Of a stretch of 64,000 nucleotides of DNA, positions 1-9,776 are shown piece after piece. The translations under genes and the position numbers were made by a program. This DNA comes from Acidimicrobiia bacterium (GTDB taxonomy: Bacteria; Actinomycetota; Acidimicrobiia; Acidimicrobiales; Aldehydirespiratoraceae), in NCBI GenBank assembly GCA_022819505.1, contig JAJEHD010000017.1, forward strand, positions 1,516 through 65,515. Reading direction: 5' to 3'. A model generated the notes under the pieces. It saw nothing but the letters and a program-made list of their open reading frames with translations, had not been told where the DNA came from and did no database searches. Numbering within the stretch: position 1 is the stretch's first letter; every line of letters begins with the position of its first letter.

Positions 1-2588
1 TCCTCGAAGCTCTGCAGGAGCGCCGGTTCCACGCCGCCACCAATGCGTTGAGGCCGCGCCACACCTACGGGACTTCGGGTCGGGTGCTGATCGGGGATGC
101 TGCCGGGCACTACCACCCGCTGACGGCGGTGGGGATGACCCTCGGCTTCGGTGATGCGTTCACGCTGGCTGACAGTGGCGACTTTCGCGACTTCGCCAGG
201 AAGCGGACCCAGCAGACCCGCGCGCCGGAGCTCCTCGCCATGGGGCTGTACGAGGTGTTCGCCGACCACAGGGCGGAGGCCGTCGCGCTCAGGCGCACGA
301 TCTACCGGCAGTGGCGCGAGAAGCCCGCAGTCCGCGACCGCACCATCCGGCTGCTCGCCTGTGAGGACACCTCGGTTGCCAGCCTGAGTTGGTCTCTCGG
401 GACGGTAGCGACACGGGCGGTCGCGCCGGAGATCACGCAGTCCTACAGGCTCTCGGCCTGGCGCCGCACACACCGCCTGGCGCACGCGCTGGCGGTTCGC
501 ATCTTCTCTCTCGGTCGTGGGATGCGACAGCTCCGTAAGGCGGGCGCCGTCGTTGCGAAGCAGGAACGGGCGCGGGAAGCCCTGTCCGGCGCGTTTCCGG
601 TCTCCATGCCGCGGCCCGGCACCGACGCGGGGCCCGGCCGCGTCGAGGAGCCCGACCCGCCCGATGCCTCCCCGGCGCTCAGGAGCGCGACCGCGCACCT
701 GTTGAGCCTTCAGCAAGGTGACGGCTCCTGGGAGGGCGAGGTGGTGTGGTGCCCCATGCTCACCGCGCAGTACGTGCTGCTGCACCACATCACACAGCAG
801 CCGCTCGCCCCGGACCGGCGCCAGCTCGTGCTGCGCTCCTTCGAGCACACCCGCCTCGAATCAGGCGCCTGGGGTCTGCACGAGCACTCGCCACCGCACC
901 TGTTCGTCACGACGCTGGTGTACGTCGCGGCGAGACTGCTGGGCGTCGGACGCAACGATCCGTTGATCGAGCCAGCCGGGCGGTTTCTTCGGGCAGAGGG
1001 GGTGCTCAACATCCCGACCTGGGGCAAGTTCTGGCTTGCTCTGGTCAATCTCCACGACTGGCGAGGCGTCAACCCCGTTCTGCCGGAGTTGTGGCGGCTG
1101 CCGCGCCGGGTTCCGCTGCATCCTTCGAACTGGTACTGCCACACCCGGCTCATCTACATGGCGATGGCGGCCATCTACCCGGTGCGGTTCCAAGCACCCG
1201 TCACGCCCGTGATCGCATCGTTGCGGGAGGAGTTGTTCGGCGAGGGTTTCGCCGACCTGGACTTCGCCGCGTCCCGCAACCGGCTGCGGGACGCCGACCT
1301 GTTCGCCCGCCCCGGCGTGTGCCTGCGCGCCGGGTACGGGCTGGCACGGTGGTACGAACAGTTCGGAAGCAAGCGCCTGCGGGCCCGCTGCACCGCCGAA
1401 CTCGTCGATCGCATCCGATGGGAGCTACGGACCACCGACCACACGAGCATCTCGCCGGTCAGCGGCCTTCTCAACATTCTCTGCCTATGGCTGCATGACC
1501 GCGACGACGCCGACTGCCGCAAAGCTCTGGCCCGGCTTGACGGCTGGATCTGGGAGGACGAGGAGGCCGGAACACGAGTCGCCGGGGCAAGGAGCGCTTC
1601 CTGGGACACCGGGTTCGCTCTGCAGGCGCTGGCGGCCGCGCCGGGGGTCGAGGGGGTCACGGGCGCGCGGCGGCGCGGTGCCGATTTCCTGCGCCGCCAG
1701 CAGATCGCTACCAGCTTCGAAGGGTTCCGCGAAGCCTTCCGGATGGACCCCGACGGCGGCTGGTGCTTCGCCGGGGCGTGGCACGGCTGGCCGGTGACGG
1801 ACTGCACCGCAGAGGCGGTGCGGGGCATGATCGCAGCCGATCCCGAGGCCGCGAGGTCGGAGACGCTCGGCGACGCCGTCCGCTTCATGCTGCGCGGCCA
1901 GAACCGCGACGGCGGCTTCGGCAGCTACGAGTCGCGCCGCTCGGCGGTCGGTCTCGAGTGGCTGAACCCCGCGGAGATGTTCGGCGAGTCGATGACCGAG
2001 CACTCCCATGTCGAGTGCACGGCGTCCTGCCTGGCCGCGTTCGCCGCTTGCCGGCGGCACTCGCCCGAGGTTCTGGGCGCGGAGGCCGCGAGCGCCGTCG
2101 GGCGGGCCGACTCGTGGCTGCGCCGGGCCCAGGAGCACGACGGGTCGTGGCGAGGCGTGTGGGGCGTTCAGTACATCTACGGCACCTTCTTCGGGATCAG
2201 GGGCCTGCTGGCCGCCGGGGCCGCTCCCGCCGATCCGGCGCTGAGGGCCGCCTGCCGTTGGCTGCTCGACCGCCAGCGGCCGGACGGCGGTTGGGGCGAG
2301 CACTACCGCGGCTGCCTGACCGGGCGCTACGTCGCCCACGACGCGAGTCAGGTCATCCACACCGCGTGGGCGCTGATCGCCCTCCTCGAGGCCGACGACC
2401 CGGACTGGGCCGCGATCGCCCGGGGTGCGCGGTTCCTGATCGACACCCAGGAGGCTGACGGGCAATGGCCCAAGCAGGACTCAGCCGGGGTGTTCTTCCG
2501 CACCGCGCTTCTCGACTACGTCCTGTACCGGCAGTACTTCCCGCTCCACGCCCTCGCCCTCTACGAGCAGCGCCGCCCGATCAGGTGA
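1..2588 (+). CDS. Squalene monooxygenase (C-terminal part) fused in frame to oxidosqualene cyclase; 5' end lies outside the window
   Basis: Frame 3 is open from nt 3 (LEALQERRFHAATNAL precedes the listed TTG at 48). The N-part has the squalene-epoxidase-type motif GDAAGHYHPLTAVGMTLGFGDA. The C-part has repeated QW-type motifs (DGSWEGE, DGGWCF, DGGFGSYE, DGSWRGVWG, DGGWGEH, DGQWP) and the OSC catalytic motif VTDCTAE. Confidence 0.8.
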   Translation, partial: LEALQERRFHAATNALRPRHTYGTSGRVLIGDAAGHYHPLTAVGMTLGFGDAFTLADSGDFRDFARKRTQQTRAPELLAMGLYEVFADHRAEAVALRRTIYRQWREKPAVRDRTIRLLACEDTSVASLSWSLGTVATRAVAPEITQSYRLSAWRRTHRLAHALAVRIFSLGRGMRQLRKAGAVVAKQERAREALSGAFPVSMPRPGTDAGPGRVEEPDPPDASPALRSATAHLLSLQQGDGSWEGEVVWCPMLTAQYVLLHHITQQPLAPDRRQLVLRSFEHTRLESGAWGLHEHSPPHLFVTTLVYVAARLLGVGRNDPLIEPAGRFLRAEGVLNIPTWGKFWLALVNLHDWRGVNPVLPELWRLPRRVPLHPSNWYCHTRLIYMAMAAIYPVRFQAPVTPVIASLREELFGEGFADLDFAASRNRLRDADLFARPGVCLRAGYGLARWYEQFGSKRLRARCTAELVDRIRWELRTTDHTSISPVSGLLNILCLWLHDRDDADCRKALARLDGWIWEDEEAGTRVAGARSASWDTGFALQALAAAPGVEGVTGARRRGADFLRRQQIATSFEGFREAFRMDPDGGWCFAGAWHGWPVTDCTAEAVRGMIAADPEAARSETLGDAVRFMLRGQNRDGGFGSYESRRSAVGLEWLNPAEMFGESMTEHSHVECTASCLAAFAACRRHSPEVLGAEAASAVGRADSWLRRAQEHDGSWRGVWGVQYIYGTFFGIRGLLAAGAAPADPALRAACRWLLDRQRPDGGWGEHYRGCLTGRYVAHDASQVIHTAWALIALLEADDPDWAAIARGARFLIDTQEADGQWPKQDSAGVFFRTALLDYVLYRQYFPLHALALYEQRRPIR

Positions 2589-3924
2589 GCGCGGTGGCCC
2601 GCCTGCGCGACACGAATGGAGGGTCGAGCACCGTGGCCCGCATGTCCATCGTCGGGAGTTCGCCGCCACCCCATTTGATGACGACTTCGGTTCCCGGCTC
2701 GGTCAAGTCCACGTTGATGCGGCCGAACGAGAACACTCGCCGCAGTGTCGGGCTGTAGCAGACGCTCGTCGCCCATCCGACCGGCTCACCGTCGTGGACG
2801 ATCGGGTGCGCTTCGGGGAACACGGGATGTGGCAGCTGTATTGGCGGCGGTGACAGCTCGTCCCTGAACTGCGCCGCGAACAGCTCGATCACGTCGTCGC
2901 TGTTCCATACCAGCCCCTTCATCCGCCGGGCCGGTCCCCCCGCGTCGATCTCCGCCTGCAGCGCGGCCTTGCCCATGAAGTCGTCGTCGCGGTCGAGTCC
3001 GATGAGATAGTCGAGGTTGAGTTCGAACGGTGAGCACAGGCTCATCTCCGGATCCATCTGGTTGCGGCGCAGGATGCCGGGATCACCCTCGAAAGCGCAC
3101 TGGTAGTCGAAGTGCAGCATCACCAGGCCGGCCTCGGCCCGGGTCAGCCTCGAGGTGTAGTTGCCGAGGAATCCGACCCCGTGCTGGCCGCCGACGTCGA
3201 CGAGGTGGGCGACCACGTCGTTGGTCCGGGCGGCCTCGACGTAGATCTCGTAGCCGACCTCACCGGTGAACCCCTGCCGCAGGATGTAGGACGGGATTCC
3301 GGCAATGTCGGTGGACTGCAGCCGTGAGAAACCGAGTTCCTCCATCGACCGCCCGACGGCGTCGTTCATCAGCGCGGTGGAGTTGGGCCCCTGGATCGAC
3401 AGGAGGCAGTAACGGGTGCGGATGTCCTCGATCAGCACGTCGAACTGGCCGAGCTCGACCACCTCCCGCAGCCAGCTCTCAATCTCGTCCGTCGTGATCA
3501 TGTACGAGTCCTCCGACACTCGCGTGATCAGTGGATCCTGGACGACCTTTCCGTCGTCACGCACCAGCACCGTGTACATCGACTGGCCGACTTCGATGTC
3601 GGCGAAGTCCTTCCTGGTCTGGATGAACCTCATGAACGGGTGTACATCCGGGCCCGACACGTTGAACTTGCAGATCGGGCTCCAGTCGCCGATCACCACA
3701 TTCTCACGGAGCTGGATCGCCTCCTGGTACCAGCCGACGTACTCGTCCACGATCAGGAAGGGGCCCCATTGCGTCCACCTCTGGGTCTTGCTGGCCAACT
3801 CCATCTGCCCGGCGCCGGGAACAAAGAACATGGGCCGCTCTGCCCCCAGGGGGAGGTCTGTCCTCAAGGACTGCCGGTACCGGTCCTGGTCGTAAGGCCC
3901 CTGGTAGCTGCCTGTCTCGAGCAT
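2581..3924 (-). CDS. GcvT/aminomethyltransferase-fold protein (tetrahydrofolate-dependent demethylase-like)
   Basis: 447-aa ORF with GcvT-like blocks (LLSIQGPNS, FTGEVGYEIYV). Size resembles DmdA/LigM-type enzymes. ATG at 3924 is preceded by AAGGTAGGGAAG. Substrate unknown. Confidence 0.55.
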   Translation of the reverse strand: MLETGSYQGPYDQDRYRQSLRTDLPLGAERPMFFVPGAGQMELASKTQRWTQWGPFLIVDEYVGWYQEAIQLRENVVIGDWSPICKFNVSGPDVHPFMRFIQTRKDFADIEVGQSMYTVLVRDDGKVVQDPLITRVSEDSYMITTDEIESWLREVVELGQFDVLIEDIRTRYCLLSIQGPNSTALMNDAVGRSMEELGFSRLQSTDIAGIPSYILRQGFTGEVGYEIYVEAARTNDVVAHLVDVGGQHGVGFLGNYTSRLTRAEAGLVMLHFDYQCAFEGDPGILRRNQMDPEMSLCSPFELNLDYLIGLDRDDDFMGKAALQAEIDAGGPARRMKGLVWNSDDVIELFAAQFRDELSPPPIQLPHPVFPEAHPIVHDGEPVGWATSVCYSPTLRRVFSFGRINVDLTEPGTEVVIKWGGGELPTMDMRATVLDPPFVSRRRATALT

Positions 3925-4035
3925 GGCTTCCCTACCTTGAGTAGCTGACTACTGAGAGTTCCGACGCTATACCGGTGGCGGCGCAGCAAGCCGATCGAGT
4001 CGAGTTCTTGGCTGCGGGGCTAGGAGGATCAGGGC

Positions 4036-5175
4036 ATGGACTTCGAGGTCGACCGTCGAGACTTTCGCCGCACGCGGATCGCTGCGGGCCGGAGGCCAGG
4101 GCTGAGCCCGGGCCAGATCCGGCTGGAGATCGAGCGGTTCGCGTTGACGACCAACAACGTGACCTACGCGGTGGTCGGCGACATGTTCGACTACTGGGGC
4201 TTCTTCCCCACCGAGGCGCCGTGGGGGCGGCTGCCGGTCATGGGGCTCGGCTCGGTGGTCGAGTCGGCCCACCCCGGCATCGCGGCCGAGGGCCGGCACT
4301 TCGGCTTCTACCCGATGTCGTCGGAGGTGGTGATCACCGCCGAGCCGCGCTCCGGAGCGGTCGGGGCCCGGCCCGACGGGGCCCGGTCAGGCGGCGAGGT
4401 CGCCTTCCGCGACGTCGGAGCGCATCGCGCACAGCACGCCGCGACCTACACCGACTTCCGCGACGTCGCCACCGACGCGACGTTCGACTTGGACAGGGTC
4501 GACGAGTACCTCCTTCTGTGGGGCATGTTCATGACCTCGTTCCTCGTCGACGACTACCTCGGCGACCCTGCCGCCCAGGGCGGGATGTTCCGCGGCGCCG
4601 GCCAGACGCTGGTCACCAGCGCATCCTCGAAGACGTCGATTTGCTTGGCCGCCTGCCTGGCCCTACGCGACGGCCATCACAGCATCGGTGTGACATCGCC
4701 GCGCAACCGGGCCTTCGTCGAGGGTCTCGGCCTGTACGACGAGGTGATCACCTACGGCGAGATCGACCGGACCGACGCCAGGGTCGCCTCGGGCCTGGTC
4801 GACATGGCCGGCAGCGGCCCGGTGCGGTCGGCGATCCACACGCACTTCGCCGACAACCTGAAGTTCTCCATCGCGGTCGGCGCCACCCACCGGGCGGACA
4901 TGGGCAGCGACGGCGACCTCCCAGGCACCCCGCCCGAGTTGTTCTTCGCGCCCGCACAGAGCGCCAAGCGTGCCAAGGACTGGGGACCCGACGAGTTGGC
5001 GAACCGGACCGCCCGGGCGTTCAACGACCTCCTGGACCAAACCGAGCGATGGCTGACCGTGGTGCACCGGACCGGCTCCGACGGCGTCGAGGCCACCTAC
5101 CGGGAACTGCTCGAGGGCCAAGCCGACCCGTCCATGGGCTACGTCTGCTCGATGAGCAAGGACGGCCTGTCCTGA
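4036..5175 (+). CDS. DUF2855 family protein (MDR-dehydrogenase-like)
   Basis: The N-terminus MDFEVDRRDF...FALTTNNVTYAVVGDMFDYWGFFP is the pattern I recognise for DUF2855. Strong SD (AGGAGG) lies 7 nt before the ATG. Confidence 0.65.
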   Translation: MDFEVDRRDFRRTRIAAGRRPGLSPGQIRLEIERFALTTNNVTYAVVGDMFDYWGFFPTEAPWGRLPVMGLGSVVESAHPGIAAEGRHFGFYPMSSEVVITAEPRSGAVGARPDGARSGGEVAFRDVGAHRAQHAATYTDFRDVATDATFDLDRVDEYLLLWGMFMTSFLVDDYLGDPAAQGGMFRGAGQTLVTSASSKTSICLAACLALRDGHHSIGVTSPRNRAFVEGLGLYDEVITYGEIDRTDARVASGLVDMAGSGPVRSAIHTHFADNLKFSIAVGATHRADMGSDGDLPGTPPELFFAPAQSAKRAKDWGPDELANRTARAFNDLLDQTERWLTVVHRTGSDGVEATYRELLEGQADPSMGYVCSMSKDGLS

Positions 5176-5241
5176 AGCCTGGACCGGCGCGCTCGCTGGG
5201 TAGCACCTAGGCATGGGAAGGCCCTGACCTGGGGTTTCGTT

Positions 5242-5284
5242 AGTCGGGCTGAGGAGATTTGAACTCCCGACCTTCGGTCCCCCA
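5242..5284 (-). repeat. att-type direct repeat: copy of tRNA-Pro from anticodon loop to 3' end (1 mismatch)
   Basis: gtcgggctgAggagatttgaactcccgaccttcggtcccccag matches 9701-9743 with one mismatch. No matching 5' acceptor, D arm or 5' strand of the anticodon stem follows. Confidence 0.85.
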
Positions 5285-5432
5285 GTTGCGCAAAGGCCGT
5301 TCCAGCCGGTACCAACGAGTACCGAAAATCCCATCTGACATGGGGTTTTGCAGATTCGGCTTCACAACCCGTACCTGCGAATAACCCCTAAAAACGGATC
5401 GTCCGTTAGAAGTTCCGTTAGAAGATTCGCCT
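5285..5432. repeat. Conserved element-end sequence (copy A), homologous to 8533-8667
   Basis: Shared blocks with copy B: ccggtacc.acgagtacc.aaaat, ccatctgac, gttttgcagattcggcttcaca, cgtccgttagaagattcg. Confidence 0.7.
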
Positions 5433-5476
5433 GCGGATGACGCTCCCGTCGTGGCCCGCACGCCGTTTGTCCGAGA

Positions 5477-5869
5477 CTAGGGCAACCGCGTCACGCGAAG
5501 TCGGATCCAGTCCGTGAGGTCATCCACTGAGAGGTCCCCGGAGGCAACCTGGACGACCGTCTTGAAGGCCTCCTCGACCGGTAACAGGTCCAGATCGTAC
5601 CCGTTCGCGTTCAAGAACTGAAGTGTGGCCAACACGGCGACGCGCTTGTTGCCGTCGATGAATGCGTGGTTGCGCGCAAGCCCGAACAGCAACGAAGCAG
5701 CCTTGGCCTCCACAGTTGGGTAGAACTCCTCACCGGCGAAGCCGGCACCCGGCCGTGCGACAGCCGAGTCTGCAAGTCCAAGATCTGTCACATGCATGAG
5801 CGCGTCCACCTCGAGCCCGAGAACCTCGCACGCGATGGCGAGCACGTCGTCGAGTTCAAGGTAGATCAC
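5477..5869 (-). CDS. doc: Doc (death-on-curing) Fic-fold toxin
   Basis: 130 aa with the Fic/Doc motif HAFIDGNKRVA. It starts 2 nt after the stop of the upstream RHH gene. Confidence 0.85.
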   Translation of the reverse strand: MIYLELDDVLAIACEVLGLEVDALMHVTDLGLADSAVARPGAGFAGEEFYPTVEAKAASLLFGLARNHAFIDGNKRVAVLATLQFLNANGYDLDLLPVEEAFKTVVQVASGDLSVDDLTDWIRLRVTRLP

Positions 5870-5870
5870 T

Positions 5871-6098
5871 TCAGCCGTCTGCGAGAATGCTCAGCAGCTC
5901 CTCATGGCGCCGAAGGTTGCGCTTCAGCATCGCTTGAAACTCCGGATCGCGGCGCCGGCGCTCGACATGCTCGGCCAGCGCATCTCGAATGACATCGCTC
6001 ACGGTGGTGTCCTCGACCTCCGCAATCGTCCGCACCCTCTCTGCGAGGTTCTCGTCAATACGCAATGTCATGCTCTTGGTATCTCCCTGCGGTGCCAT
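5871..6098 (-). CDS. Ribbon-helix-helix (CopG/Phd-like) antitoxin
   Basis: Start chosen at MAPQGDTKSMTLRIDENLAERVR (ATG 6098 preceded by AGGAGGG). The MTLRIDENL beta-strand start is typical of RHH. It is adjacent to doc. Confidence 0.75.
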   Translation of the reverse strand: MAPQGDTKSMTLRIDENLAERVRTIAEVEDTTVSDVIRDALAEHVERRRRDPEFQAMLKRNLRRHEELLSILADG

Positions 6099-6403
6099 CT
6101 GGCCCTCCTGTGGCGGTGTCCTGATCACAAGAATACACCTTGGTGGTGAGAATGCAAGATACCTAGATATCTGGCTCCCAGGCGCCAGCGGGCCAACGGG
6201 GGACGCGGGACGCGCTGCCTGCCACCTCGGTACGCCGATGCGGTCGAACACGGTGGTGCGGCAACCGCACGGTGGTGCATCTGCCCAGAGCCAGAAGAAT
6301 GAGCAAGATGCACAGAGCGAGGGCGCTCACGAGATCTTCCTCAAGTCTTCTGGAGGGACTTTGGTCATCCGAAGGCGCACGCGGAGGCGTCCGGGACGCC
6401 CCC

Positions 6404-6581
6404 CTCGAGGACTTCGACCTGCGGGACGTCACGCTGTTCCTGAGCGATTGGAGCGGTCCGATGGGTCTCGACTTCGCTCGTCGGAATCCGGGTCGAGTCA
6501 AGAGGCTCGTCATCGCCACCTGGTGCTGGCCGGTGAACCGCGACTCTCGCCTCTGGTTCGTCAGTCGGATGATGGCGAACC
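6404..6581 (+). pseudogene. Alpha/beta-hydrolase (haloalkane-dehalogenase-like) gene fragment
   Basis: Only an internal block is recognisable: LEDFDLRDVTLFLSDWSGPMGLDFARRNPGRVKRLVIATW (nucleophile-elbow region). No credible N- or C-terminal parts. Confidence 0.45.
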
Positions 6582-6691
6582 CGCCAAGGCAGTTTCGAAT
6601 CAGGCGGCGTCGCGGAACGAGGTTAACCCCGGTCGGTGGCGCCACAGACGCCGTTAGATCCGCCGATCCTCCGGGAACTCTTACATAAATC

Positions 6692-7723
6692 TCAGGTCCG
6701 AGGCGAGAACCGATCAGCTCTCCTCGTCTCCGGGCTGTGATCATCGTCAAAGAAACGGCCTTCAACAAAGTCCAAGAAATCAGGAACGTCACTCTGCTTC
6801 AGTTGTAGTTCGCCATCTACTACAAGGTGACCTAGTTTTCTTTGTTCAAGTGCCTTCAGAAACGCTGAACTATCTAAGTCAAGATCCGCCAACCGCCCGT
6901 AGACTAGATTGTGCAGTCTCCTTGCGTTCCTGGGACCACTGTTGCAAGCAATCCTGAGCGCATCAAGACTACCTGCTGTAAGGGGAATACACTCATTGAG
7001 TGCCGCGTCAACCGCGTCGACATTAGGGTCAACATGCTGCATCACGAGATCTACATCTCGGAATAGAACCTGGACCGAGCCATCCGAGATAATTGCGACA
7101 TCTTCGGGTCCAACTACAATATCAACCCTCTCATCTATGACAATGTCAGGCTGCTCCATGCGTTTCAGGGTGTCTCCGTATTGAAGATACCGCAGCCCCG
7201 GCTTCAAGGACCGCCTCGGATTGGCCTGGCGGATGAACCCCACGAAGGAGTTGCTTATGTGAAATGAAATAGCGTAAAGATTGAATCTTGAGACTTGACG
7301 AAGATCTGCAGCTGACAATACTGGGTGCTGATCGGTCTCGTCAATGATCCTTAGGGCTTCAGCCACGCCGAACAACTCATCTGGACCGTTTGCATCCGCC
7401 GAGAGCGAATCGTCACGCGTCAGCCCTCGCCTATTCTTCATCTTCATCGAGCGTGGTATCTCACCTCTCTCAAGCATGAAGTGCTCATCCTCTTCGAGTG
7501 CTCCGAACGGAGCGTAAGGACGTCCAGTAGATCGGCCCAAGAAATCTAGAGCGGAGAGCCCAATTTGCCGAAGATCTGCAAACAGGTCCTGATGGATCTC
7601 GATGTTGTAGCAGTCCATTAGCCCGGATGCCTTGCGATATCCGACGATAAACCTAGGATCACCCTCTAGGCTCGTTGCCGCCCACGTGTTGTTCATGGGT
7701 AATCTGTTCCTCCTTTCGAACAA
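6692..7723 (-). CDS. DUF4868-like protein, candidate KwaB of a Kiwa-type defence pair
   Basis: About 340-aa soluble protein directly downstream of, and overlapping, a 4-TM protein gene. The locus is AT-richer than its surroundings. The C-terminal pattern (DFLDFVEGRFFDD...) resembles what I recall of DUF4868. The start may be MNNTW at 7696. Confidence 0.5.
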   Translation of the reverse strand: MFERRNRLPMNNTWAATSLEGDPRFIVGYRKASGLMDCYNIEIHQDLFADLRQIGLSALDFLGRSTGRPYAPFGALEEDEHFMLERGEIPRSMKMKNRRGLTRDDSLSADANGPDELFGVAEALRIIDETDQHPVLSAADLRQVSRFNLYAISFHISNSFVGFIRQANPRRSLKPGLRYLQYGDTLKRMEQPDIVIDERVDIVVGPEDVAIISDGSVQVLFRDVDLVMQHVDPNVDAVDAALNECIPLTAGSLDALRIACNSGPRNARRLHNLVYGRLADLDLDSSAFLKALEQRKLGHLVVDGELQLKQSDVPDFLDFVEGRFFDDDHSPETRRADRFSPRT

Positions 7724-8354
7724 AGAACCTTCCGAACCTGACGACCGAAACCGATTGATCGGTTGCTAAGCGTGCCGTCCGTGGAACCAAGACTACAGCG
7801 ATTGGATCAATCTTGGTACTCGTTCTCGTGCGAGCGCGCACAACGCGGTATCCAAATGCGTAGAGAGTCGGATTGATCGCAGCGAGGTCGGACTGAACAA
7901 ATATCGCCCAAACCACGACGAAGAACACCAGTATTCCGAGAACTTCCTGGATCGTAGAGAGTTCGAAGCCAACAAACGGTAACAGAAAGGTCGCCAAGTA
8001 GGCCGCTATTGCTCCTGACTGATCTTGAATGTCATAGAATTCCATTTGGATACTGCCCTTGCGGAGAGCGCTGCGAGGGAGGCGCCAGGCATCGACCAGA
8101 CCCCAGGCCGCCCATGCAGCCGCCAACCAGAAGACGTACATTCTGATCTGGCACGACCGCCAGTCGCATGAGGTTTGGATTGCCAAGATCAGGGCTAGCG
8201 GTGCGAAGGCTACCAAGAACAGCCGGAACAACCGCAATAGTGCTGTCGCGTCCTGCCCGTTCATGCCGTCAAACGTACTCCCGCCGTGTGACAAGGTCCT
8301 CGTCCGCGCGAGATCAGAGTTCGTAGAGGTCGAGCGAACCGTCGTGGAGCCCAA
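7659..8354 (-). CDS. Four-TM membrane protein, candidate KwaA
   Basis: Four hydrophobic helices (LFRLFLVAFAPLALILAI, YVFWLAAAWAAWGLV, AIAAYLATFLLPFVGF, VLGILVFFVVVWAIFV). It precedes the DUF4868-like gene. The start is more likely MNGQD at 8264. Confidence 0.5.
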   Translation of the reverse strand: MGSTTVRSTSTNSDLARTRTLSHGGSTFDGMNGQDATALLRLFRLFLVAFAPLALILAIQTSCDWRSCQIRMYVFWLAAAWAAWGLVDAWRLPRSALRKGSIQMEFYDIQDQSGAIAAYLATFLLPFVGFELSTIQEVLGILVFFVVVWAIFVQSDLAAINPTLYAFGYRVVRARTRTSTKIDPIAVVLVPRTARLATDQSVSVVRFGRFFVRKEEQITHEQHVGGNEPRG

Positions 8355-8490
8355 GACGACGTTGGCCGCCGGGCCAGCGCCTCCCGGGCGACGGTCCTTA
8401 CGTGCTCACCGACAAGAGATGGGAGTTCTGGTGCCAACCGTTCTCAAGGAGATGTTCGTGCCACATGGCGACGTAGAGCCTACGCCTCTT

Positions 8491-8532
8491 GTCGTGGGTG
8501 GGAGGCTTCAACTCTCGACCTTCGGTCTCCAG
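8491..8532 (-). repeat. Degraded copy of the tRNA-Pro 3'-half att repeat
   Basis: gtcgtgggtgggaggcttcaactctcgaccttcggtctccag aligns to 9701-9743 with roughly three quarters identity. It is followed by the same conserved flank as copy A. Confidence 0.6.
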
Positions 8533-8667
8533 TTGCTGAAGGGCTATTGCACCCGGTACCGACGAGTACCAAAATGTCCATCTGACGTAGTGTTTTGCAG
8601 ATTCGGCTTCACATCTCGTAACTGTGGATACCCCCCATAACGAACCGTCCGTTAGAAGATTCGACCT
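8533..8667. repeat. Conserved element-end sequence (copy B)
   Basis: Homologous to 5285-5432. Contains tgtggata (8623-8630) and cgtccgttagaagattcg (8646-8663). Confidence 0.7.
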
Positions 8668-8755: not shown

Positions 8756-8935
8756 ATGACCACTGTGCCTATCGCCGACACCGGCCACGATCCGCTTGAG
8801 GAGCCGGTGACACTCGCCGAGCTGGACGCGAGCGTCGGGACCGGGCCCGATGTGCCCGAGCACGAGGTCGCCGTGCGCTACTACACGGATGAAGCGTTCC
8901 TGACGGCGATCCAACTGCGCCGCAACGGCCTCACC
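8756..8935 (+). pseudogene. Orphan 5' gene fragment (hypothetical), truncated at the junction with the IS fragment
   Basis: ATG at 8756 is preceded by GGGAGGA. MTTVPIADTGHDPLEEPVTLAELD... runs into the antisense of the truncated transposase gene. Confidence 0.2.
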
Positions 8936-9417
8936 ACCGACGCCTTGGAGCCGTCAGTGAGCATCACCCCGCCCATCACGTCCATCTGCCACAGCTCCAT
9001 CGCCCGGCTGCGCTCCCAGCGCTTGTAGTCAGACCTCTTGCGGCGCCTCGCCACAGGCTGGATCAGCCCGTGACGCACCAAACACCGATACACCGACGAC
9101 CTCCCCGGCAACGGCACCACCCCGCGGGCCTCGAGACCGAACAACAACGTGCGCGGACCCCACCCCGGATTCTCCCGCCGCAGCCCCACCACCAAAGCCT
9201 CCACCTCCGCCGGCATCTGATGCGGGCACGAACCAGGCCGCGGCGACTGATCCGCCAGCCCCGCCAAACCCCTCGACGCATAACGGCGCAGCCACCGATG
9301 CACCGTCTGGCGGGTCACCCCGAACCGAAGGGCCACATCCTTCACCGCAGCGCCGTCGCGCAACACCTCCAACACCGCCGCATGCCGCTGCTCCACCACA
9401 CCGAGCTCCACCAACAC
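8881..9417 (-). mobile_element. IS481-family transposase gene, N-terminal fragment only (truncated)
   Basis: HTH region (VALRFGVTRQTVHRWLRRY) and the start of the DDE domain (ELWQMDVMGG) are present. IS481-like similarity then ends and a stop follows about 28 codons later. No terminal inverted repeats identified. Confidence 0.7.
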
Positions 9418-9630: not shown

Positions 9631-9701
9631 TTTGGGCGATCCCAGAGTTATCCACAGGTGAGCCTGGATCAGAAATGTACTCTTACCTTGGATTTTATCT
9701 G

Positions 9702-9776
9702 TCGGGCTGGGGAGATTTGAACTCCCGACCTTCGGTCCCCCAGACCGACGCGCTAACCAAGCTGCGCCACAGCCCG
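9702..9776 (-). tRNA. tRNA-Pro (anticodon GGG)
   Basis: Hand-folded 75-nt cloverleaf: acceptor CGGGCTG/CAGCCCG, D stem GCGC/GCGC, anticodon stem TCGGT/ACCGA with loop CTGGGGG, T arm GGGAG-TTCAAAT-CTCCC, discriminator A. CCA is not encoded. Confidence 0.9.

Follow-up and report, generated by a model that had tools for sequence, protein, structure and literature searches.

Here we report that a 64,000-nucleotide (nt) stretch of DNA from an Acidimicrobiia bacterium (contig JAJEHD010000017.1; referred to below, at its full length, as the window) carries kwaA and kwaB, the two genes of the Kiwa anti-phage system, in one operon on its minus strand. An earlier note on this DNA, made from its letters, had proposed the Kiwa arrangement, and KwaA and KwaB are indeed both present. 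The pair is a divergent member of the known Kiwa system and not a new system. We hold with high confidence that it constitutes a functional-looking two-gene defence operon, acquired horizontally as cargo of a small, immobile island at a tRNA-Pro gene. Our account draws on the homology of both proteins, their folds, the conservation of the operon and its foreign base composition, together with a motif ahead of kwaA, the conservation of that motif and its co-occurrence with DNA-damage genes.

The two genes and the parts of the second product are as follows.

7659..8264, minus strand: kwaA, 201 amino acids (aa) from an ATG at 8264, in a frame that is open upstream to a TTG at 8354.
6692..7696, minus strand: kwaB, 334 aa from an ATG at 7696, in a frame that is open upstream to a TTG at 7723.
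Parts of KwaB: an alpha/beta domain at the N terminus, a domain resembling DUF4868, a basic loop (residues 86-109) that is disordered (predicted local distance difference test, pLDDT, below 50) and a C-terminal tail.

Both minus-strand frames exist as first delimited from their TTG codons, at 7659..8354 (231 aa) and 6692..7723 (343 aa). Sequence features indicate, nevertheless, that the true starts are probably ATG 8264 for kwaA and ATG 7696 for kwaB, and that the upstream extension of kwaA to TTG 8354 is probably not translated. The kwaB start is preferred because an AAGGAGG ribosome-binding site stands 8 nt ahead of it and because the 334-aa form is already found in public gene calls; the kwaA start is preferred because the alignments of family models to the product start near residue 39 of the long (231-aa) form and the closest KwaA homologues begin at the position equivalent to ATG 8264. 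The genes overlap, as the earlier note stated; the overlap measures 38 nt with the ATG starts and 65 nt with the TTG starts. In the window KwaA and in its closest relative (locus L020, 94-699) the C terminus is extended by about 17 residues (KEEQITHEQHVGGNEPRG; window 7659-7715), likely through the loss of a stop codon, and the 38-nt overlap with kwaB is a consequence of this extension; most KwaA relatives (L021 and L022 were compared) end at ...FFVRK, a short gap before kwaB. The lower guanine-plus-cytosine (GC) content ascribed to the cassette is also real, at 0.51-0.55 over 6500-8250 versus 0.68-0.75 in the surrounding core genes; the Kiwa genes average 0.527, the remainder of the window 0.693, and the genome as a whole has a GC content of ~70%.

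The first gene product is securely identified as KwaA, with support from both sequence and fold. A search with the PADLOC models (a PADLOC run had been proposed in the earlier note) was positive for KwaA (PDLC00219, E = 1.5e-17, nearly the whole model) and positive, at a weaker level, for KwaB (PDLC00231, E = 4.2e-6), where about 30% of the model was covered. The NCBIfam KwaA equivalog model NF041622 matches the first gene product at E = 1.1e-17 over model positions 9-175 of 182. When a profile of 25 KwaA homologues (alignment A2) was compared with PDB sequences, it found the solved E. coli KwaA (9mrg) at E = 5.7e-14, and the strings LAT(F/Y)LLPFxGF and SDLAAINPTLYxxG align with the solved protein. 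Pfam PF28043 (KwaA) is recorded in precomputed tables for all KwaA homologues; no KwaA model was matched when the window protein was scanned with our local copy of Pfam. All invariant columns of the KwaA family (30/30) are kept in the window copy. Four transmembrane segments had been claimed for this protein, and its AlphaFold model (pLDDT 72) contains the corresponding long helices at residues 3-30, 40-67, 83-97 and 105-124, with beta strands at 72-81 (between helices 2 and 3), 139-146, 155-161, 171-177 and 180-183. The model matches the architecture given for KwaA in PMC11785009, that is, four transmembrane helices and a cytoplasmic beta-barrel. In a Foldseek search all seven matches at E <= 0.001 were KwaA chains, the next match standing at E = 1.2, and the alignment with 9mrx_A covers the full length (201 columns, template modelling (TM) scores of 0.70/0.72, E = 4e-9, 21% identity).

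The identity of the second gene product as a divergent KwaB is settled by the combination of fold, transitive profile homology and genomic linkage. The comparison with published Kiwa structures that the earlier note had recommended was made with an AlphaFold model built on an alignment of the 28 closest relatives (A1; pLDDT 79, predicted TM-score 0.74). It yielded six Foldseek matches at E <= 0.001, every one of them a KwaB: 9nyu, four chains of 9mtn and 9mrx_D, with E values from 1e-8 to 8e-7 and a probability of 1.0. These alignments extend over the whole length of the protein (342-362 columns; 349 for 9nyu_A, at E = 1e-8) at 8-11% identity, and the next match has an E value of 0.27. The outcome that had been named as incompatible with Kiwa, namely the lack of any KwaB hit combined with a confident assignment to another fold, did not arise, because the only confident fold matches are to KwaB.

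Profile searches lead from the window protein to recognized KwaB proteins. The A1 profile retrieves 444 representative proteins (clusters at 50% identity) at E <= 1e-3, 286 of them at E <= 1e-10, and among 72 relatives sampled, 26 match Pfam PF16162 at E <= 0.01 (best 2.3e-11) and 44 match PADLOC KwaB (best 2.9e-13). In the ten nearest representative clusters no Pfam match reaches significance, the best being PF16162 at E = 0.048 in one cluster, which points to a sizeable KwaB subclade outside the reach of Pfam. Besides PDLC00231, two other PADLOC KwaB models match the window protein directly, at E = 7e-4 and 6e-3. A resemblance to DUF4868 had been seen in its C-terminal pattern; the likeness holds loosely, and the position does not, the weak KwaB-model matches lying mid-protein at residues ~128-236. 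A broader KwaB profile aligns collinearly with PDB KwaB (153-314 against 139-302) at E = 0.018, ranked behind coiled-coil false positives, and searches of PDB sequences with single distant family members gave no match. The NCBIfam scan of KwaB returned no match, and no other domain or catalytic motif was found in the Pfam, PADLOC and NCBIfam scans. All 45 invariant columns of the KwaB family (45/45) are kept in the window copy. A C-terminal tail of the form EGR(L/F)(F/Y)xDDxxxxxRRADR(F/Y)SxR (window 6692-6760, residues ~312-334) varies little or not at all within the clade (A1), is still visible in the consensus of the 72-sequence superfamily alignment (A3) and has pLDDT values of 52-74; this tail could serve as a docking peptide or have a regulatory role.

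The operon itself is conserved. We compared 13 loci, namely the window locus and 12 other loci of the Kiwa clade, and in every one the gene just ahead of kwaB, in the same orientation, is kwaA; in the 12 others this gene encodes a PF28043 KwaA, uncalled in one of them and recovered there as an open reading frame. The suspicion of a divergent actinobacterial version proved correct, in that the core proteins of the window cluster with proteins of metagenome-assembled genomes named 'Acidimicrobiaceae bacterium'.

A conserved element precedes kwaA.

8272..8294, minus strand: predicted leaderless promoter of kwaAB, of the PafBC or RecA-NDp type, made up of TTGTCACAC (-26 element), 8 nt, TACGTT (-10 element) and 7 nt to ATG 8264.

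In full, the sequence ahead of ATG 8264 is TTGTCACAC-GGCGGGAG-TACGTT-TGACGGC-ATG. The pattern YGTCAY-N10-TAnnnT ends 6-10 nt ahead of the called kwaA start in 10 of the 13 loci, the proteins of which are only 40-87% identical and the DNA of which is unrelated further upstream. As the -10 element lies 7 nt ahead of the start codon, a leaderless mRNA is implied, and this layout further supports ATG 8264 as the true start. The spacing of the box puts TGTCA at about -28 to -24. A PafBC-specific -26 motif, the upstream element of such promoters, and activation of PafBC by single-stranded DNA (ssDNA) have been described (PMC11804915), and the geometry of the kwaA box agrees with that -26 element. 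Taken with the genomic evidence below, the motif makes membership of the clade's kwaAB in the PafBC regulon more probable than not, in which case a leaderless kwaAB transcript is predicted to be induced by DNA damage or ssDNA. Our literature search found no paper linking Kiwa with PafBC; control of other defence systems by WYL-domain regulators is already known, and the conserved, predicted PafBC-type leaderless promoter on Kiwa is the new result. Another candidate PafBC box in this region, TTGTCGGTG at 8407-8415 (minus strand), was rejected on three counts: a proper TAnnnT is lacking at the 8-nt distance, relatives do not keep the box, and it is no more frequent than chance allows (two copies in the window versus an expectation of 0.66; 13 of 100 shuffles contain two or more).

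The same box recurs elsewhere in the host genome, where TGTCAC-N10-TAnnnT is found 11 times, versus 3-6 times in shuffled sequence, the N9 form once and the N11 form not at all; each of the 11 N10 copies reads TGTCACA(C/G). Upstream of recA (C8:139629-139830), a TGTCACAC-N8-TAAGTT box stands beside a LexA-type box, GAAC-N4-GTTC. Dual LexA-type and PafBC-type control of recA is known from mycobacteria, and the recA of this host carries both boxes. Further copies precede rmuC, a 1079-aa PD-(D/E)XK AdnA-like gene, two DUF222-HNH genes and clpC, as well as genes for a DUF4007 protein and a deaminase-domain protein, an ilvB-like gene and a small uncharacterized gene; ahead of an Lhr-like helicase gene stands a TGTCGC variant. 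The genome also has, side by side, two WYL-domain genes with the sizes of pafB and pafC. The boxes at C15:301552 and C16:188413 (both plus strand) belong to the DUF4007 gene and to the deaminase-domain gene, whose 568-aa product has a domain of the cytidine/dCMP deaminase type; DUF4007 is a family associated with phosphorothioation and with defence loci. Further defence-like genes may therefore be part of the PafBC regulon predicted for the host.

The cassette lies in an island at tRNA-Pro, next to a toxin-antitoxin pair and insertion sequence (IS) debris, just as the earlier note had described. The features concerned are these.

9701-9776, minus strand: tRNA-Pro(GGG) gene (ARAGORN), the integration target of the island series.
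5242-5282 and 8490-8530: displaced copies of the tRNA-Pro 3' half, direct repeats (families D1-D3), with a third copy at 9700-9740.
5242..8530: island module with kwaAB, gene debris and the Doc/RHH pair, bounded by the displaced tRNA-Pro 3'-half copies.
5477-5869, minus strand: Doc/Fic toxin gene (Pfam Fic, E = 3.9e-12; TIGR01550 DOC_P1, E = 1.1e-13).
5871-6251, minus strand: RHH (CopG-type) antitoxin gene (Pfam RHH_1, E = 9e-7).
6272-6688, plus strand: alpha/beta-hydrolase-like fragment, a 138-aa frame with the haloalkane-dehalogenase-like string RNPGRVKRLVI and both ends missing.
8881-9417: N-terminal fragment of an IS481 transposase.

The module is a decayed island, with a GC content of 0.572 (versus 0.693), no integrase within ~5242-8530 and attachment-site copies (the tRNA-Pro 3' halves) that have diverged to 73-87% identity. 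The Doc/RHH pair is cargo of this island and not part of Kiwa, and the frame at 6272-6688 is probably gene debris between kwaB and the toxin-antitoxin pair. Element ends of ~112 nt precede the displaced tRNA-Pro copies (5282-5393 versus 8529-8640, 79% identical), and the motif TCCGTTAGAAG is repeated at 5402, 5414, 8648 and 9608. With the three 3'-half copies, these repeats suggest that two related, integrase-less islands were inserted in tandem. An empty tRNA-Pro site could not be demonstrated, the region beyond the tRNA differing in every relative examined: in four congeneric genomes the DNA there is unrelated to window 1-5240, and six congeneric genomes lack window 1-5240, including a 379-aa gene at 4036-5175 and an aminomethyltransferase-like gene at 2581-3924. 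The tRNA-Pro locus is thus a variable hot spot, and the variable region may extend to the end of the contig.

No kwaB was found in 36 other species of the genus, two of which have a distant relative at 26-28% identity; close KwaB relatives were found neither in GTDB species representative genomes nor in viral contigs, and JGI metagenomes yielded only four. The Kiwa genes are AT-richer than their flanks in all 13 loci, by 3-17 GC points, and defence genes predominate among their neighbours across loci (type I and type III restriction-modification, DndC/D/E, AbiEii, GmrSD, Abi_C and HerA-like ATPases). Composition, patchy occurrence and defence neighbours together are the usual picture of a horizontally moving defence cassette.

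Several observations weigh against parts of this account. The 64.4-bit score of KwaA with NF041622 lies under the curated 100-bit equivalog cut-off, and at the sequence level this match shows homology rather than equivalog-level similarity. The sequence evidence for KwaB is weak when taken alone: the PF16162 search that had been proposed as a check failed, with 11.8 bits (E = 0.24) against a gathering threshold of 26.3, a failure that we ascribe to poor coverage of this clade by the Pfam model and not to a different identity of the protein. The near-clade A1 profile found no KwaB among PDB sequences. The global TM-score of the KwaB model against the solved structures is only 0.38-0.49, with a root-mean-square deviation of about 10 Å; domain orientation or details therefore differ, and the modelled match is probably one of fold and topology, with the two domains differently oriented or elaborated. 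Since identity is only 8-11%, the DNA-contact residues of E. coli KwaB and the residues of the KwaA-KwaB interface are not reliably mappable onto the window proteins. The promoter motif is missing at the called kwaA start in 3 of the 13 loci. The RecA-NDp consensus used for comparison, tTGTCRgtg-N8-TAnnnT, is the one reportedly given by Gamulin et al. 2004; the other PafBC papers cited here give only its name and the -26 position. Finally, the island is decayed and its genes might be heading for loss, although both frames are intact and keep all their invariant columns.

These points bear on three alternative explanations. The one that survives best concerns regulation: the upstream box might belong to an ordinary promoter, housekeeping or leaderless, or be an operator for some other factor, unrelated to PafBC in either case, with Kiwa expressed constitutively as in E. 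coli. TAnnnT is a generic actinobacterial -10 element, the box reads TGTCACAC and not the mycobacterial TGTCGGTG, some of the box genes (ilvB-like, clpC) are not classical DNA-repair genes, and induction through PafBC is a prediction from sequence. A generic promoter fits poorly, however, with an upstream element held at fixed spacing (11 copies with N10, one with N9, none with N11), and the kwaA box is identical to that of recA, which also has a LexA box. The PafBC regulon, reportedly described by Muller et al. 2018, is said to include recA, adnAB, lhr and 13E12/DUF222 genes; here the box also stands ahead of rmuC, the AdnA-like gene and two DUF222-HNH genes, and its TGTCGC form ahead of the Lhr-like gene, a set that is typical of that regulon. 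The genome in addition holds pafBC-like genes. We consider this alternative the less likely one, though of appreciable probability, and favour membership of kwaAB in the PafBC regulon. A broader proposal is more tentative, with somewhat less than an even chance of being right: the whole actinobacterial Kiwa clade, with its KwaB invisible to Pfam, could be connected by its conserved leaderless promoter (-26 and -10 elements) to the PafBC regulon of its hosts, which responds to ssDNA and DNA damage, and act as an inducible second line.

According to a second alternative, KwaA is paired here with an effector other than KwaB, the 334-aa protein being a different soluble partner in a new KwaA-based system. 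The PF16162 score far under threshold, the failure of the near-clade profile to find PDB KwaB, the ten nearest clusters and their lack of a significant Pfam match (best PF16162 E 0.048) and the TM-scores below 0.5 are all compatible with such a partner, as are the clade-specific invariant tail (RRADRFS) and the long disordered basic loop. Yet all six Foldseek matches at E <= 0.001 are KwaB over the whole length, with nothing else under E = 0.27, the PADLOC KwaB match at 4e-6 falls in a collinear region, an unbroken profile link runs from the clade to PF16162-positive proteins, and no catalytic domain of another family was found; a non-KwaB effector is accordingly very improbable. Just as improbable is a decaying remnant, an island that is dead and whose two genes are unexpressed or non-functional: the module lacks an integrase, is flanked by debris (the hydrolase-like 6272-6688 and IS481 8881-9417) and has attachment-site copies diverged to 73-87% identity, but both frames are intact at full length with all 45 (KwaB) and 30 (KwaA) invariant columns kept, and the kwaB ribosome-binding site and kwaA promoter box are intact in a layout identical to that of relatives.

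For the intact Kiwa operon that we favour, a mode of action can be proposed by analogy with the E. coli system (PMC11785009). A KwaA tetramer would serve as a membrane sensor, each subunit with four transmembrane helices, and its cytoplasmic beta-barrels would hold KwaB dimers in a complex. If the membrane were disturbed where a phage attaches or a plasmid enters by conjugation, KwaB would be freed or activated and would then clamp the entering DNA through its DUF4868-like domain; replication and late transcription of the clamped DNA would stall, with no DNA cleavage, and anti-phage activity would result. The regulation would be specific to the clade: kwaAB would be transcribed as a leaderless mRNA from a promoter of the PafBC (RecA-NDp) type, and ssDNA or DNA damage would activate PafBC and raise kwaAB expression.

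Our data extend Kiwa to the Acidimicrobiia and bring to light a KwaB clade that has no functional name in any source holding its members, the one named member being a 'hypothetical protein'. Because this clade (444 clusters) escapes Pfam, a Kiwa census based on DUF4868 undercounts the system. The PafBC-type promoter provides a testable hypothesis, namely that a membrane-sensing defence is transcriptionally coupled to DNA-damage signalling in Actinobacteria. If this is true, Kiwa would here be switched on when phage replication or another defence generates ssDNA, rather than standing as a constitutive membrane sentinel, and the cassette would carry its promoter from host to host, where it would rely on a regulator present in every actinobacterial recipient. 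Apart from the promoter and the Pfam-invisible KwaB, this is an ordinary mobile defence cassette.

Kiwa is best known from E. coli O55:H7 and ECOR strains (Doron et al. 2018; Zhang, Todeschini et al., PMC11785009; structures 9mrg, 9mrr, 9mrx, 9mtn and 9nyu). The window pair shares with it a two-gene operon with kwaA first, a KwaA with four transmembrane helices and a cytoplasmic beta-barrel (TM-score 0.70, 21% identity), and a two-domain soluble KwaB whose model matches only KwaB structures; E. coli KwaB combines an N-terminal Rossmann-like domain with a C-terminal DUF4868 domain, and the window model appears to agree with this at the level of fold. Like about half of the known Kiwa loci, the pair sits on a mobile island among defence genes. 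It differs from the E. coli system in a KwaB that is 8-11% identical to the solved protein and under the Pfam threshold, that has a disordered basic loop of ~25 residues and that ends in an invariant C-terminal RRADR(F/Y)S tail, in a KwaA under the NCBIfam equivalog cut-off, in its high-GC Acidimicrobiia host, and in a predicted leaderless PafBC-type promoter, of which none has been reported for E. coli. 

With the PafBC/RecA-NDp regulon of Mycobacterium and other Actinobacteria (PMC6789036; PMC11804915), the host shares a TGTCR element of the -26 type at fixed spacing to TAnnnT, the presence of this box ahead of recA, rmuC, AdnA-like, DUF222-HNH and Lhr-like genes, and an adjacent pair of WYL-domain genes. 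Unlike the mycobacterial regulon, it uses the box TGTCAC(A) in place of TGTCGGTG and counts a defence operon among the predicted members, the Acidimicrobiia case being a prediction from sequence. The coupling of anti-phage genes to a WYL factor that senses ssDNA or DNA damage recalls CapW-CBASS (PMC9122588), BrxR-BREX and the Moraxellaceae activator (PMC12392091). In those systems the regulator usually adjoins the defence genes or represses them, whereas the window operon appears to join the global PafBC regulon of its host through its promoter alone.

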